A stretch of 64,000 nucleotides of DNA from Eledone cirrhosa (taxonomy: Eukaryota): NCBI GenBank assembly GCA_964016885.1, contig OZ024746.1, positions 57,474,001 through 57,538,000 of the forward strand, read 5' to 3'. Below, piece by piece: positions 3,264 to 51,957 of the stretch. A program made the position numbers and the translations under genes. The notes beneath the pieces were generated by a model, which saw only the letters and a list, made by a program, of their open reading frames with translations, was not told the origin of the DNA and ran no database searches. Within the stretch, counting starts at the first letter, position 1; each line of letters opens with the position of its first letter.

Positions 3264-4377
<1,114 letters not shown>

Positions 4378-9073: not shown

Positions 9074-9164
9074 CAATAATACCATTACGATATTTCATTC
9101 GAAAATCCCCAAGCCTTTTGATCGATTAGTTCCAGAATCGTATCCGATTTTCATGAAAATGACA

Positions 9165-9345
9165 AGATCGCGTAGGACGGAAGAAAGGAGAGGCACAAAA
9201 GAAAGAAAAGAATCCCCAGTCACTGATGAGACCACAGAATGTGTGACGTAAGAACTTTGACAATATATGAAAAACCGTCCGGTTGTGGAACCAACCAACC
9301 AACCAGAAATTTATGATTTTCTAAAATTTATAATTTAATTTATAA
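9165..9345 (+). mobile_element. Solo PLE 3' terminal repeat with HHR (9219-9261)
   Basis: Homologous to the reverse complement of 45250-45420; GTCA-CTGATGA-GACCACAGAATGTGTGAC-GTAA-GAAC-TT-TGAC. Confidence 0.75.
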
Positions 9346-9473
9346 TAAATTGGAGTAAAATCCGTGGTGCGTGTGTTTCTTATTGGCAACGTATAACAAT
9401 ATCGGTTTCAACACACGTTTTCAGATAAAGAATCTTGCTAAACAAATTCAGAAACGAATTACATATATATATA

Positions 9474-15736: not shown

Positions 15737-15819
15737 ATATAGATATAGATATAGATATATATAAATGTAAGTATGTGAGTATACGTACATACATATATGT
15801 ATACAGACGTACAGTACCA

Positions 15820-15873
<54 letters not shown>

Positions 15874-16027
15874 CATACAGGTACACATACATATATGCAC
15901 GCATCAGTGTAGCGGACGCTTATTATAACGCCGCTTTGTTCGATTGTCAACAAACTGAACAGCCTGGATTTATACCGTACTGTGTTAAGGCAACCACGTC
16001 ACCTTTTTGTTCAACACTGACACAGGA

Positions 16028-16070
16028 ACGATGTACTAGTTTCAAGCTTGTTAGCTATCATCAGCACCGT
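16028..16070 (-). ncRNA. Type I hammerhead ribozyme (family A)
   Basis: Reverse complement of 16143-16185. Confidence 0.88.
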
Positions 16071-16142
16071 TTACCCATCTGCCAGTACCCATCTGCCAGA
16101 TAGTTGAACTTTCGAACGTTCAACTATCTGGCAGATGGGTAA

Positions 16143-16185
16143 ACGGTGCTGATGATAGCTAACAAGCTTGAAACTAGTACATCGT
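16143..16185 (+). ncRNA. Type I hammerhead ribozyme (family A)
   Basis: ACGGTG-CTGATGA-T-AGCT-AACA-AGCT-T-GAAA-CTAG-TA-CATCGT; GUA triplet, palindromic stem III ACTAGT. Confidence 0.9.
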
Positions 16186-16351
16186 TCCTGTGTCAGTGTT
16201 GAACAAAAAGGTGACGTGGTTGCCTTAACACCGTATGGCATAAATTCAGGCTGTTCAGTTTGTTGACAAACGAACAAAGCGGCGTTATAATAAGCGTCCG
16301 CTACACTGATGCGTGCATATATGTATGTGTACCTGTATGTATATATGTATA

Positions 16352-16417
<66 letters not shown>

Positions 16418-16579
16418 TGCTACTGTACGTCAGTATACATATATGTATGTACGTATACACACATACTGACATTTAAGTAAGTGCCATACTAAGAGTGAGA
16501 AATGAAATTTCGTTTTCATTTTTTTCAACTTATATATATATAGATATATATATATATATATATATATATAGATAGATAT

Positions 16580-16974: not shown

Positions 16975-17583
16975 GTTAATTACATACCATATAAGCAATA
17001 ACAAATCCAAGACATTGAAGAATGAAAAATAATAGAAGATAAAGGATATTAAGGAAGTAAAAGTAAAAATAAGAATAAAAATAAAAATAAAAATAAAAAT
17101 AAAAATAAAAATAAAATAATAAAATAAACAATGAAAAATAAAGGGTGCTATCAGTCACAGTTGGGCGGGGTGCTGTCAACATATAGTTACATACAAGCAT
17201 ACACATGGATAAGAGAACAGACAAGAGTAGATAAGATAGATAGGATTAGGTAAGAGTAGGTAAAAAATAGGTGAAAAACAGACTTATAATATATATAAGA
17301 AAATATAAAGAAATATATAACAAACTTACATATAAAATATAAAATATACAGATAATAGTAATACAGGGTAAGGAATGAAATAAAATAATATATAATTAAA
17401 ATTAAAATTATATAAAATAGAACATAATATAATATAATCATAAAATAAGATAAAATAAGGTAAACTAAAATAAAATAAAATAGACTAAAGTAAAATAATA
17501 TAATATAAGATATAATTAAATGTAATTAAATAAATAAATAAATAAATAAATAAAATTAAATAAAATTAAAATTAAAATTAAAT

Positions 17584-17623
<40 letters not shown>

Positions 17624-19536
17624 ATGAAATTAAATAAGTAAATAAATAAAATTAGATAAAATGAAATGAAATAAAATAAAATAAAATAAAATGAAATAAA
17701 GTAAATTGAGATAAGATATATATTTTTCTAGAATATGTCTCTTGAATATATCAGGGGCCCACGAAGGCACTAAGTGTCACAGTTATCTGTATCACTTGAC
17801 CATTTTTTAAAAATATATTTCTTGAAAATATCAGGGGCCCACGAAGGCACTAAGTGTCACAGTCAGCAGTATCACTTGACCATTGCAAGGCAATGGAGGC
17901 GTCCCAGGTTGGGCAGTCTCAAAAGTTCACTCGAAAGTCACGGGTGTGCATTCACACAGTTGAGCGGTGGGGTAATCACAAACCGGTTCACACCCGGACA
18001 GGAGTCCAATGGTCAAAGAGAGGTGCATCGAAGGAAGGTTGGAGAATTCACGTGCAGTAGCAAGCGAGGTGCAGGCGGGTTAGCCAAAGCAAGCAGACAC
18101 AGTTGGAGCGCATACAAAAGATATATAAAAAGACAAAAAATATATAAAAAATAGCTTCAAGAGCCATGAATTCACCGCATTGGGACATCACAAGATTGTA
18201 CACATCAATATGTTCAGCACGTATATGCACATATACACACCACATGCATATGCAGAGACGGTATACATATATATATATATATTTTTTTTTATATACAGAC
18301 ATATACAACCACCTACACCCATACACATATAAATGTATACACAGACACACACGCACACACACACAGCGTAGGACACCCGGGTCAAAGCTGATATTAAACA
18401 CCGAAATACCACATTTGGCAAGACCCACCACCACGGATAATACATTCAAAATAAATACATACGATGAGATGTAGTAAAATAAAGTTGAATTCCTACGGAG
18501 ATAATCATGTCCGCACGTGCCATTGCCCGATTCAAGTGTACACTTGAATCGGGCAATGTTATATATTTCTTTATATTTACTTATATATATTATAAGTCTG
18601 TTTTTCACCTATTTTTTACCTACTCTTACCTAATCCTATCTATCTTATCTACTCTTTATTTTACTACATCTCATCGTATGTATTTATTTTGAATGTATTA
18701 TCCGTGGTGGTGGGTCTTGCCTAATGTGGTATTTCGGTGTTTAATATCAGCTTTGACCCGGGTGTCCTACGCTGTGTGTGTGTGCGTGTGTGTCTGTGTA
18801 TACATTTATATGTGTATGGGTGTAGGTGGTTGTATATGTCTGTATATAAAAATATATATATATATGTATACCGTCTCTGCATATGCATGTGGTGTGTATA
18901 TGTGCATCTACGTGCTGAACATATTGATGTGTACAATCTTGTGATGTCCCAATGCGGTGAATTCATGGCTCTTGAAGCTATTTTTTATATATCTTTTGTC
19001 TTTTTATATATCTTTTGTATGCGCTCCAACTGTGTCTGCTTGCTTTGGCTAACCCGCCTGCACCTCGCTTGCTACTGCACGTGAATTCTCCAACCTTCCT
19101 TCGATGCACCTCTCTTTGACCATTGGACTCCTGCCCGGGTGTGAACCGGTTTGTGATTACCCCACCGCTCAACTGTGTGAATGCACACCCGTGACTTTCG
19201 AGTGAACTTTTGAGACTGCCCAACCTGGGACGCCTCCATTGCCTTGCAATGGTCAAGTGATACTGCTGACTGTGACACTTAGTGCCTTCGTGGGCCCCTG
19301 ATATTTTCAAGAAATATATTTTTAAAAAATGGTCAAGTGATACAGATAACTGTGACACTTAGTGCCTTCGTGGGCCCCTGATATATTCAAGAGACATATT
19401 CTAAAAAAATATATATCTTATCTCAATTTACTTTATTTCATTTTATTTTATTTTATTTTATTTCATTTCATTTTATCTAATTTTATTTATTTACTTATTT
19501 AATTTCATTTATTTATTTATTTATTTATTTATTTAC

Positions 19537-19568
<32 letters not shown>

Positions 19569-19598
19569 ATTTAATTTTAATTTTAATTTTATTTAATT

Positions 19599-19638
<40 letters not shown>

Positions 19639-20177
19639 TTACATTTAATTATATCTTATATTATATTATTTTACTTTAGTCTATTTTATTTTATTTTAGT
19701 TTACCTTATTTTATCTTATTTTATGATTATATTATATTATGTTCTATTTTATATAATTTTAAGTTTAATTTTATATTATTTTATTTCATTCCTTACCCTG
19801 TATCACTATTATCTGTATATTTTATATTTTATATGTAAGTTTGTTATATATTTCTTTATATTTTCTTATATATATTATAAGTCTGTTTTTCACCTATTTT
19901 TTACCTACTCTTACCTAATCCTATCTATCTTATCTACTCTTGTCTGTTCTCTTATACATGTGTATGCTTGTATGTAACTATATGTTGACAGCACCCCGCC
20001 CAACTGTGACTGATAGCACCCCTTATTTTTCATTGTTTATTTTATTATTTTATTTTTATTTTTATTTTTATTTTTATTCTTATTTTTACTTTTACTTCCT
20101 TAATATCCTTTATCTTCTATTATTTTTCATTCTTCAATGTCTTGGATTTGTTATTGCTTATATGGTATGTAATTAAC

Positions 20178-45176: not shown

Positions 45177-45244
45177 TGTTATACTTTGGGAGGGTCATCT
45201 TGCCAATAGGAAACACACGCACCAGTTGCTTTCACTTCAATTTA

Positions 45245-46085
45245 TTATAATACATTTATAAATTTAGGAATTTATAAATGTCCGGTTCGTTGGTTGGTTC
45301 CACAACCAGATGGTTGTTTATATATTGTCAAAGTACTTTCGTCACACATTATGTGACTTCTTGAGTGACTTGGGATTCTTTTCTTCGTTTTTGTGCCTCT
45401 CCGTTGTTCTGTCCTACGCCATTTTGTTTCTGTGTGTGTGTTGACTGCTCAGTCTGCGCATGCGTCACATCTAGGTGTCTGTGTTTGTTTATATTCGTTT
45501 ATTTATTTGTTTATTTACATGTTACAGGTTGGTTGTTCGTTCCATGTGCGTGTGTGTGTTTCATTTAGTCTGTAATTGTAAGTTGTGATGTTGCTGTTCC
45601 ACTCATGTTTTCTATTTAATTTTGGTTGTAATTCTTTTATGTTTATTGCCTCTGTGATTTGTCTAAACATTGCGTCTTTTCTGTGTGTAGATTCTATTTT
45701 TATTTCTCTGTTCTCTAATTTACCCTTATGTTCTATTTTAGAATGTTGGTAGAGTACAGATGATTCTTTACTATCTTGAAGGTCTCGCCAGTGTTCATTT
45801 ATCCGTTCCCCTACACTACGAGCTGTCTCACCTATGTACACTATATTTTTGTCCCTACATTGTCCTTCAGTACATCTTATGCTATATACTACATTTCTAG
45901 CTTTACGGTTAATATGGGGATTAATTTACAGGTTATACATTTCTTATCTATACAGGGGGTCTTTGAAAAGGTTATATCTTGCTAATAAGTGTTTTTTTAC
46001 GGAGGTACCTGGTCTTTCTACTACCTTAATATTGAGTTTCTGTTTATCTAGGGCCCTTCTAATTTTGTAAGCTAATTAACCTCCA
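45245..46085 (-). mobile_element. Penelope-like element 3' part: GIY-YIG endonuclease + 3' repeat with HHR remnant (45327-45369)
   Basis: YIGETARSVGERINEH..RQITEAINIKELQPKLNRKHEW; GTCA-CTCAAGA-A-GTCACA..TGTGAC-GAAA-GTAC-TT-TGAC. Confidence 0.9.
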
Positions 46086-46089
46086 CTAG

Positions 46090-46983
46090 TTAAAACACCC
46101 CCACTAGAGAACAGTCAGAAATTAGAGAAAAACACAATGGAAAGCATCCAGCAAATAGCTAACTCCATCCACCAGAGTAATAGAGTTACTATAGACTACC
46201 AAAGTAAACACCCCAACCATCGATTACCTGTACTAGACACAGAACTCTGGTTAGATACCATTAATAACAAAAAAACAAATACTCCATTCCCATTATGCCA
46301 AACCCATGACTTCCAAATATCTGATCAACCGAAACTCAGCTGTTTCGGACCATACTAAAATCAACATACTGATTGCGGGTGTGGTACGGGTGATGAGAAA
46401 CGTGTCCCGCATGTGCAATCCCGAAGAACTAGAGAGACAGATACAACATTTTGTCCACCGTATGCAGGTCTCTGGTTACAATCAGAGAGATAAAATCAGA
46501 GTGTATAGAGGAGCCAGAACCAAATGGGAAAAAATGGTACATAATGACACAAATGGGCCCTGCCCCTTGTAAGGAGCACATTTTGGAATAGAATAGAAAG
46601 AACTAGGAATAAGGCTAATAGAATAAACTCATGGTATGATAGCAATAAATACCAGAGTGTAATGTTCATCGATACAACCCCTAGAGGTGAATTAGCTTAC
46701 AAATTTAGAAGGGCCCTAGATAAACATAAACTCAATATTAAGATAGTAGAAAGACCAGGTACCTCCGTAAAAACTCTTATTAGCAAGACACACCCATTTC
46801 AAAGCCCCCCCTGTATAGATAAGAAATGTATAACCTGTAAATTAAGCCCCCATATTAACTGTAAAGCTAGAAATATAGTATATAGCATAAGATGTACTGA
46901 AGGACAATGTAGGGACAAAAATATAGTGTACATAAGTGAGACAGCTCGTAGTGTAGGGGAACGGATAAATGAACACTGGCGAA
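46090..46983 (+). pseudogene. Penelope-like RT thumb/linker/GIY-YIG start, inverted relative to the adjacent copy
   Basis: LPVLDTELW, YAKPMTS, C-rich linker, IVYSIRC..YISETARS; frameshifts; 46683-46983 is the reverse complement of ~45786-46084. Confidence 0.9.
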
Positions 46984-47636
46984 TCGTAAAAGCACATATC
47001 GTTATATGCTTTTTCTATGAAAATTAGTAGTGGGCAGACTAATTTGCATAGAGTGTGAGTAAGTACCGGTTCAACGGAGACGATAAAAACAAATAACGAA
47101 ACGAAATTAAATTTCGTTTCGTTTGTAACTCACTTTTGTATGACGAAATTTAATTTCGTTTCGTTATTTGTTTTTATCGTCTCCGTTGAACCGGTACTTA
47201 CTCACACTCTATGCAAATTAGTCTGCCCACTACTAATTTTCATAGAAAAAGCATATAACGATATGTGCTTTTACGATTCTCTAGAAAGGCCGGAAGATAG
47301 GTAAATATTGCTGATGAGTTGTAACAACAACGAAACTAGTTCAATATTCCTTGTCTGGCTTTCTGGAGAATAGAGGAAAGGTGTTTCCTCAAAAACCAGT
47401 ATGACTCTAAAAACCGGTTTGTCTGTGTGTTTACATACAGAATAGCTGGCCACTCACAGTAAAGTGACCAGTGAAAAAACTTGGTACATCTACATATGTA
47501 TACGTGTGTGTATTCATATACATACTAGTATTTCAGTATACATATATGGATGTACATCTTTAACTTAATTGTTTAAGCGTCAGTCATACAAAAGTGAGTT
47601 ACAAACGAAACGAAATTTAATTTCGTTTCGTTATTT

Positions 47637-47640
<4 letters not shown>
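46981..47640 (+). mobile_element. Retrozyme-like family A' element: inverted arm + 467-bp monomer + ~30-bp terminal repeat
   Basis: ACGAAATTTAATTTCGTTTCGTTATTTGTT at 47143 and 47610; 46981-47118 inverted vs 47143-47279. Confidence 0.9.
47304..47348 (+). ncRNA. Canonical type I hammerhead ribozyme
   Basis: AATATTG-CTGATGA-GTTGT-AACA-ACAAC-GAAA-CTAG-TT-CAATATT; all core positions intact, perfect stems I and II. Confidence 0.93.
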
Positions 47641-47697
<57 letters not shown>

Positions 47698-50733: not shown

Positions 50734-50795
<62 letters not shown>

Positions 50796-51230
50796 CAGGT
50801 ACACATACATATATGCACGTATCAGTTTAGTGGACGCTTATTATAACGCCGCTTTGCTCGTTTGTAAACAAACTGAACAGCCTGATTTTATGCCGTACGG
50901 TGTTAAGGCAACCACGTCACCTTTTTGTTCAACACTGACACAGGAACGATGTACTAGTTTCAAGCTTGTTAGCTATCATCAGCACCGTATACCCTTCTGC
51001 CAGATAGTTGAACGTTCGAAAGTATATACTTTCCTTATGAAAATTAACGGCTGAGCAGCCTAATTTACATAACGAGTGAGTTAAGTCGGGCAGGCATACC
51101 GAAAACGATAAGTTGAAATAAAATGAAAACGAAATTTCATTTCTCACTCTTAGTACGGCACTTACTTAAATGTAAGTATGTATGTATACGTACATACATA
51201 TATGTATACAGGCGTACAGTAGCATGCATA

Positions 51231-51266
<36 letters not shown>

Positions 51267-51824
51267 CAGGTACACATACATATATGCACGTATCAGTTTA
51301 GCCGACGCTTATTATAACGCCGCTTTGTTCGTTTGTAAACAAACTGGACATCCTGAATTTATGCCGTAGGGTGTTAAGGCAACCACGTCACCTTTTTGTT
51401 CAACACTGACACAGGAACGATGTACTAGTTTCAAGCTTGTTAGCTATCATCAGCACCGTATACCCTTCTGCCAGATAGTTGCACGTTCGAAAGTATATAC
51501 TTTCCTTATGAAAATTAACGGCTGAGCAGCCTAATTTGCATATCGAGTGAGTTAAGTCGGTCAGGCATACCGAAAACGATAAGTTGAAATAAAATGAAAA
51601 CGAAATTTCGAAAGTTCAACTATCTGCCAGAAGGGTATACGGTGCCGATGATAGCTAACAAGCTTGAAACTAGTACATCGTTCCTGTGTCAGTGTTGAAC
51701 AAAAAGGTGACGTGGTTGCCTTAACACCGTACGGCATAAATCCAGGCTGTTCAGTTTGTTTACAAACGAACAAAGCGGCGTTATAATAAGCGTCCGCTAA
51801 ACTGATACGTGCATATATGTGTAC

Positions 51825-51899
<75 letters not shown>

Positions 51900-51957
51900 G
51901 CATGCTACTGTACGTCTGTATACATATATGTATGTACGTATACATACATACTTACAT
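50621..51957. mobile_element. Family A array: two tandem monomers (491 and 471 bp, minus sense) + short repeat + inverted copy
   Basis: GTTGAAATAAAATGAAAACG at 50621, 51112 and 51583; HHRs at 50946-50988 (-), 51417-51459 (-), 51639-51681 (+, core CCGATGA). Confidence 0.92.

Follow-up and report, generated by a model that had tools for sequence, protein, structure and literature searches.

A two-armed hammerhead retrozyme insertion in Eledone cirrhosa and evidence for a circular or multimeric RNA template

We analyzed a window of 64,000 nucleotides from Eledone cirrhosa (GCA_964016885.1, contig OZ024746.1, positions 57,474,001 to 57,538,000 of the forward strand) together with related loci across the genome. 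The inverted repeat at 46981-47640 of this window is a damaged copy of a mobile repeat that is very common, does not code for protein, and carries a ribozyme. Its 467-bp unit is, judged from its sequence, a type I hammerhead non-LTR retrozyme, non-autonomous and non-coding. We consider it probable that the enzyme of a Penelope-like element (PLE) primes both target strands at two fixed sites in the retrozyme RNA, rolling on one unit that is probably a circle. A sequence-only reading of this DNA had already concluded that the template was circular or multimeric; that conclusion is probably right, but the local argument given for it fails. Positions within the unit are given as phases, with 47143 as phase 1, and the insertion has the following parts.

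46981..47144, minus strand: left (inverted) arm, phases 441-467 and 1-137, with 0/164 mismatches to the forward copy
47143..47640, plus strand: right arm, 1.07 units (498 nt), with the outer end "A" (long) and one crossing of the ribozyme cleavage site
47211..47218, plus strand: octamer ATGCAAAT, a candidate internal promoter element, also found in older relatives at 3732 and 51534
47304..47348, plus strand: type I hammerhead, with stem I AATATTG/CAATATT, core CTGATGA, 5-bp stem II, GAAA, and 1-bp stem III with palindromic ACTAGT
47570..47575, plus strand: location of the short outer end, "B", at phases 428-433, the inferred reverse transcription (RT) start site of the other arm
47571..47640, plus strand: "tail" of ~70 nt between the two fixed ends, holding a 13-bp perfect hairpin (47604-47632; fold z of -4.4)
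47641..47693, no strand: (TA)n target tract at the right outer end

The inverted repeat at the locus spans 142 nt at 99% identity, far above chance expectation. The reverse complement of 46981-47144 runs through 47583-47609 and then 47143-47279 with 0 mismatches over 164 nt, as the sequence-only reading had described. The forward copy, described there as one 467-bp monomer plus a repeat of ~30 bp, measured 467 bp plus 31 nt (47610-47640) and terminates in (TA)27. The right arm is 99.7% identical to the nearest copies fetched. The left arm joins it over 2 nt (AC), meets the PLE frame over another 2 nt (GA), and lacks the outer stretch of at least about 290 nt that should carry it to the B end.

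Other parts of that reading required correction. It held that the forward copy has no continuous end-to-start path; the junction is in fact present there as well (47583-47640; 27 + 31 nt, 58 nt), stopping sooner than in the inverted arm. Position 47143, taken as the monomer start, is only a truncation point, given that the inner (5′) ends of 135 arms elsewhere are scattered across all unit phases. The predicted hammerhead cut lies after GUU, 3′ of 47341, at phase 199 (the genome-wide scripts set it at 200/201, one base beyond), and the inverted arm falls entirely within one cut-to-cut unit. One linear cleaved monomer would suffice to produce it, so this arm is no proof of a circle or concatemer. 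The forward arm does need a circle or multimer, because a linear cleaved monomer primed at the outer end gives at most ~299 nt, compared to 498 nt. The claim that RT copied a more-than-unit template thus holds through the 498-nt forward arm and the genome-wide arrays, and not through the inverted arm. Formation of the inverted arm by fold-back on the same cDNA was rejected: the arm extends 106 nt further than the forward copy could template in that register, and arms of this type at other loci have a fixed outer end of their own.

Assignment of the unit to the retrozymes draws on its ribozyme, its abundance, and its lack of coding capacity. The ribozyme stems were 99 to 100% paired across 51 distinct copies. 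In stem II, 21 of these 51 rows had U-A exchanged for A-U; the rows are related, and the exchange thus represents one or few events. Among 305 copies the cleavage triplet was GUU in 233, GUC in 64, and GUA in 8; searches with Rfam models gave no match at the gathering threshold for the unit's hammerhead. The ribozyme core has 9,266 exact matches in the 3.0-Gb genome and a 37-mer spanning the junction has 6,757, and units occur in tandem arrays with periods of 466 to 471 bp and up to about 50 units. The longest stop-to-stop frame in the unit stretch is 65 amino acids, leaving no protein-coding capacity and no reverse transcriptase plus GIY-YIG reading frame. The G+C content is 163/467 (35%), and the predicted fold is far stronger than that of shuffled sequences (z of -9.7). 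No LTR pair was found in the fetched loci.

Older relatives of the unit, about 61 to 63% identical and with a 471-bp period, lie in the window at 15760-16530, 50746-51900, and 3547-4107. Those at 15760-16530 and 50746-51900 share the two-arm layout, with one long and one short end, and their hammerhead has GUA as its triplet. Unrelated hammerhead-like motifs were observed in the flanks of eight fetched loci (L004, L038, L040, L043, L057, L063, L087, and L143). Together, motifs of this kind suggest that the genome holds many more ribozyme-bearing families. The octamer ATGCAAAT is a possible internal promoter element of the unit, with a parallel in promoters of the snRNA type. A literature search returned no passage supporting an octamer promoter in newt satellite 2. 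The octamer is conserved over diverged families, yet a young 7-locus clade has lost it through three A>G changes lying close together.

We then compared the arms of fetched insertions: 27 loci came from the first 100 junction matches, 52 were picked for one end in TA, 6 more came from a young clade, and 11 more were young arrays; one fetched locus had no arm above the identity cutoff. Insertions consisted of two head-to-head arms, and nearly all outer ends abutted (TA)n. Outer ends clustered in two windows, phases 28-38 for A and phases 423-436 for B, which lie ~70 nt from each other on the RNA. The 27 loci that had not been selected by end contributed 47 arms, of which 25 ended at A, 19 at B, and 3 elsewhere. 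Pairing was similarly regular: 54 of 59 head-to-head pairs combined one A with one B, none was A-A, 1 was B-B, and 4 had one irregular end (a count that omits 3 complex loci and the 11 last-fetched arrays). The sequence-only reading had proposed checking whether genomic copies are circular permutations with scattered start points; scatter was borne out for the inner (5′) ends, whereas the outer (3′) ends are fixed at two sites in 44 of the 47 arms.

Arm lengths spanned 0.1 to about 50 units, and the lengths of the two arms showed no clear correlation (rho of 0.20; P = 0.14; n = 54). In about half of 22 seemingly single-armed loci, a remnant second arm of <28 nt was present. The "B"-end-plus-TA pattern has 762 forward-strand matches in the genome. 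In run X1, which looks independent but may be the same sample, loose TA ends occurred at the same two places as A and B, including one at 47575. An insertion lying outside TA (L144) has a 12- to 17-bp target duplication with 4 to 5 nt matching each RNA end. Retrozyme insertions thus have an inverted truncated copy and a one-sided tail, as in PLE-type integration products (one A and one B in the 54 pairs), and an AT-rich or microsatellite target, another PLE integration trait. Because this two-armed, one-sided-tail geometry is common to PLEs, including the family neighboring our locus, the retrozyme bears a PLE integration footprint, and on the sequence comparison the two-armed inversion is the family's normal PLE-type integration product.

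Several exceptional structures were also observed. The sole pair with two B ends is at L088 350-1985. The insertion at L031 7711-8273 has (CAT)n flanks instead of (TA)n and one irregular outer end. At L094 2044-4783, four arms of two subfamilies are present; here one insertion probably lies next to or within another, at the tail hairpin. Elsewhere in the window, 17374-17884 and 19248-19790 form a long inverted pair ~1.4 kb apart, with an 80-bp tandem dimer and A/T-rich microsatellites, possibly a foldback element.

Copying beyond one unit was common. Of 135 arms with a fixed end, 74 were longer than one unit and 103 crossed the cleavage site, 47 of them at least twice. Arms within one insertion differed at only 10/1,309 diagnostic cells (53 pairs), compared to 37.6% between loci. 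Across 60 inherited variant sites, 232 locus cells had the derived state throughout, 1,299 had the consensus throughout, and 94 were mixed; once one nested four-arm locus and artifacts at alignment ends and homopolymers were removed, about 10 of the latter were left. In one young clade, 58/65 full units from six loci were identical, and new variants were again fixed array-wide in two other young clades. Where young loci had two long arms, these were near identical to each other (e.g., 12 + 6 and 6 + 6 full units, one haplotype each). The simplest reading of these variant data suggests that one unit was read repeatedly and served both arms.

When five array-wide variants were checked across the genome, four marked small clades of several loci, and we therefore rejected locus-private variants as proof of a single template. 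The fifth was private, with 9/9 genome matches in a single insertion, in every copy and both arms. A-to-I editing as the source of array-wide variants was not supported (7 A>G versus 10 T>C in a set of 42 rare fixed variants), although three A>G changes in a cluster mark one young clade. The end-to-start joint was seen in contigs, of unknown library type, from four runs; it arises equally from tandem DNA and carries no weight for circles. Over 47143-47609, runs X5 and X6 (depths of 11 and 188; different organism code) each contained essentially one haplotype, and X1 was a mixture.

Indels near the cleavage site were infrequent (5 events in 301 passes; 0.0012 versus 0.0035 per base-pass elsewhere). 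Inner ends were enriched at phases 200-232, just 3′ of the cleavage site (20/135 versus 9.7 expected; window chosen post hoc), and at the tail hairpin (23 versus 11.5 expected; window chosen after the data were seen). The former may reflect ribozyme-cut linear templates or stalling, and the hairpin excess would also fit stalling. A weak palindromic stem III is reported to let multimers cleave while monomer circles stay intact (PMC4209133, in the part consulted), which would favor circles as the surviving template. Variant patterns in a 31-unit array are shared and repeat between units, and a 50-unit arm (L164-L166; G000 C5, 39.86-39.885 Mb) has repeating 2- to 3-unit variant patterns. These repeating shared variants indicate that DNA-level expansion occurs. 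Variants within the heterogeneous 50-unit array were absent from the 4 clade mates examined. In one young array (L150 3265-3820), an older subfamily supplies the innermost unit, pointing to an in-register template switch or recombination.

Other templates could yield such arrays. Dual target-primed PLE integration might instead have used a linear, partly uncleaved multimer from a homogeneous array, with no need for a circle. We consider this unlikely, although the excess of inner ends at phases 200-232 persists after 1 to 3 earlier passes, long young arrays exist as candidate sources, and cleavage may be weak given GUU in 233/305 copies and a 1-bp stem III; moreover, the dominant substrate of the anole PLE is unprocessed RNA (PMC11167929, in the part consulted). 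Truncated copying from such a source can solely shorten arrays, however, and new variants were all-or-none at every genealogy step. Loci shared no ordered multi-unit pattern (across 147 non-fixed cases, 7 variants were non-fixed in two or more loci), the variation inside the 50-unit array did not extend to its examined clade mates, and the private variant would require a source absent from the assembly. Alternatively, RT might insert only one to two units, with unequal crossover or slippage then growing the arrays and gene conversion homogenizing them; local amplification of arrays is discussed in bioRxiv 10.64898/2026.07.22.740005. The 31- and 50-unit arrays fit such growth, but as a general explanation it is very improbable: many very young loci are long and uniform on both arms (12 + 6, 17 + 7, 20 + 15, 7 + 9, and 6 + 6 full units), two expansions per locus would be required before any mutation, and even single arms such as 47143-47640 exceed the cleaved-monomer limit. 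Still harder to credit is that rolling was only mimicked, with RT reaching the 5′ end of a linear cleaved monomer and jumping, time after time, to the 3′ end of that monomer or of another one. The in-register subfamily switch at L150 and the stops near the cleavage site are compatible with jumping. RT jumps would be expected to leave scars, as with the R2 RT, but the indel rate at the cleavage site was below that elsewhere, and mixed arrays were rare.

The history of the locus itself involves a second element, immediately to the left of the retrozyme.

45177..46083, minus strand: inverted arm of an older PLE, with the GIY-YIG C terminus, a 3′ UTR with a degenerate hammerhead, and a short outer end in (TA)n
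46084..46982, plus strand: forward arm of the older PLE, from the end of the RT region to the start of GIY-YIG, with stops and frameshifts, ending at the retrozyme junction

Since the right retrozyme arm has the A end, the left arm was expected to reach a B end in TA. It instead stops at phase 137-139, where it meets the PLE frame over GA. We infer that a young retrozyme inserted in the TA tract terminating an older PLE copy and that ~1 kb (the PLE 3′ end, the TA tract, and the outer left arm) was lost at or after retrozyme insertion. The two elements might alternatively derive from one event, with RT switching from retrozyme RNA to PLE RNA and the adjacent PLE family acting as partner. Direct joining by a 2-nt microhomology would fit such a fusion, as would the TA targets and two-arm geometry common to both families. 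We nevertheless judge it improbable: the PLE arms are 94% identical to each other and 95 to 96% identical to their best relatives, while the retrozyme arms are 100% identical to each other; the PLE segment is opposite in sense to the arm it joins; and the PLE and retrozyme tails have no homology. The PLE-retrozyme junction has one match in the genome, which also rules out a recurrent chimera.

The PLE family beside the retrozyme is abundant and two-armed, with a long and a short end ~60 nt apart (a tail) and one of each in 6 two-armed loci. Members of this family (L130 2037-5024 and 45177-46982 of the window) have open frames of up to 995 codons and a minimal hammerhead in the 3′ UTR. They also have a CX4CXXC linker before the GIY-YIG motif, making them Neptune/Nematis type according to the portion of PMC8557442 consulted. 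A second related PLE family was observed in L042, L078, and L155, and 9162-9389 of the window is an 83% match to the PLE 3′ UTR at 45200-45427. Among three PLE ends examined for homology to the retrozyme tail, none gave a convincing match.

Under the explanation we favor, a PLE RT/GIY-YIG protein would integrate the non-autonomous 467-bp retrozyme by nicking the two target strands 12 to 17 nt apart. Reverse transcription would then be primed from each target 3′ end at an internal RNA position, A for one strand and B for the other, and the two cDNAs would halt at variable points before being joined end to end. With less certainty, RT would read a single unit over and over, and the simplest such template would be a ligated monomer circle, which may have arisen from dimeric hammerhead cleavage of array transcripts; the longest arrays would have been extended later at the DNA level. 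A narrower version, in which a PLE dimer on one circular retrozyme RNA primes two strands at the two fixed sites with both subunits rolling, strikes us as evenly balanced; if true, each insertion would be a two-armed clone of one RNA circle and a genomic record of circle-templated integration, and the model would offer a general account of PLE tandem, inverted, and tail structures.

Some observations weigh against this explanation. With four of five array-wide variants being clade markers, a homogeneous source array could also explain the apparent one-unit template; a source array absent from the assembly could account for the private variant, and assembly could homogenize array units. The 31- and 50-unit arrays expanded in DNA, and the L150 array switches subfamily in register. 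In addition, the few PLE families seen include none with a homologous end, and a PLE in vitro showed no strand preference for start site (PMC11167929, in the part consulted).

Reverse transcription of animal retrozyme circles by PLEs has been proposed since 2014-2020 on the basis of co-occurrence and sequence similarity. The retrozyme family described here bears the footprint of PLE integration directly, remains young, as identical copies occur at several loci, and has two start sites defined to a few bases. A 467-nt RNA and purified PLE protein would therefore allow direct tests of the retrozyme mobilizer, of the circle as template, and of the origin of the inverted-plus-tail structures of PLEs. 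In twin priming by L1, an inversion arises because a further cDNA is primed from the second target strand, and the second priming point varies along the RNA. In the retrozyme the second strand would prime as well, but its point is fixed and both arms copy the same sequence.

The element kind and the circle hypothesis are in print (PMC7229834, PMC7761336, and PMC4209133), as is a PLE origin (bioRxiv 10.64898/2026.07.22.740005). Like metazoan non-LTR retrozymes in the sections consulted of PMC7229834, PMC7761336, and the bioRxiv preprint, the Eledone element is a short, AT-rich tandem unit that lacks coding capacity, holds one type I hammerhead, exists in thousands of copies, gives an RNA predicted to fold strongly, and co-occurs with PLEs. 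Circle-templated, more-than-unit reverse transcription by a PLE is the model proposed for them (Cervera and de la Pena 2020, PMC7229834; PMC7761336; bioRxiv 10.64898/2026.07.22.740005), with the mobilizing enzyme and mechanism left open in the parts consulted. Circular RNA has been shown for metazoan non-LTR retrozymes and would be the predicted form of the Eledone unit. The texts searched describe no inverted second arm, tail, or fixed end pair: "inverted" is absent from the main text of PMC7229834, and the searched text of the preprint has no "tail" and has "inverted" in a reference only. In our search, which covered main texts and few subscription papers, neither retrozyme insertions with two arms nor clonality at the level of the unit turned up as the subject of a paper. 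The element is therefore of a known kind, and its two-armed, mechanistically telling architecture is apparently undescribed.

The closest parallels to that architecture are in PLEs, which are known for a truncated copy in inverted orientation and for a tail on one side (PMC8557442). A purified PLE protein cuts and extends both strands at AT-rich sites, and the two internal RNA positions where it starts mark the limits of the tail (PMC11167929). As in endonuclease-positive PLEs (PMC8557442, PMC11167929, and PMC4209133, each in the part consulted), the retrozyme has an inverted 5′-truncated copy beside the main copy, a tail at one end, microsatellite targeting, a hammerhead upstream of two internal RT start sites, and a palindromic weak stem III. 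It differs from them in having no open reading frame, a 467-bp unit, a tail of ~70 nt rather than 30 to 40 nt, and arms that are often multi-unit on both sides. Its near-strict pairing of one A with one B end also contrasts with the PLE in vitro, where start sites did not differ between strands (PMC11167929). Chlamys derivatives such as MRC1 (PMC8557442) are likewise non-autonomous and form multicopy head-to-tail insertions by PLE machinery, but they resemble an autonomous family at the 3′ end, and no such partner was found for the retrozyme. Most Chlamys elements, as described in the part of PMC8557442 consulted, have no hammerhead, whereas the retrozyme unit carries one.
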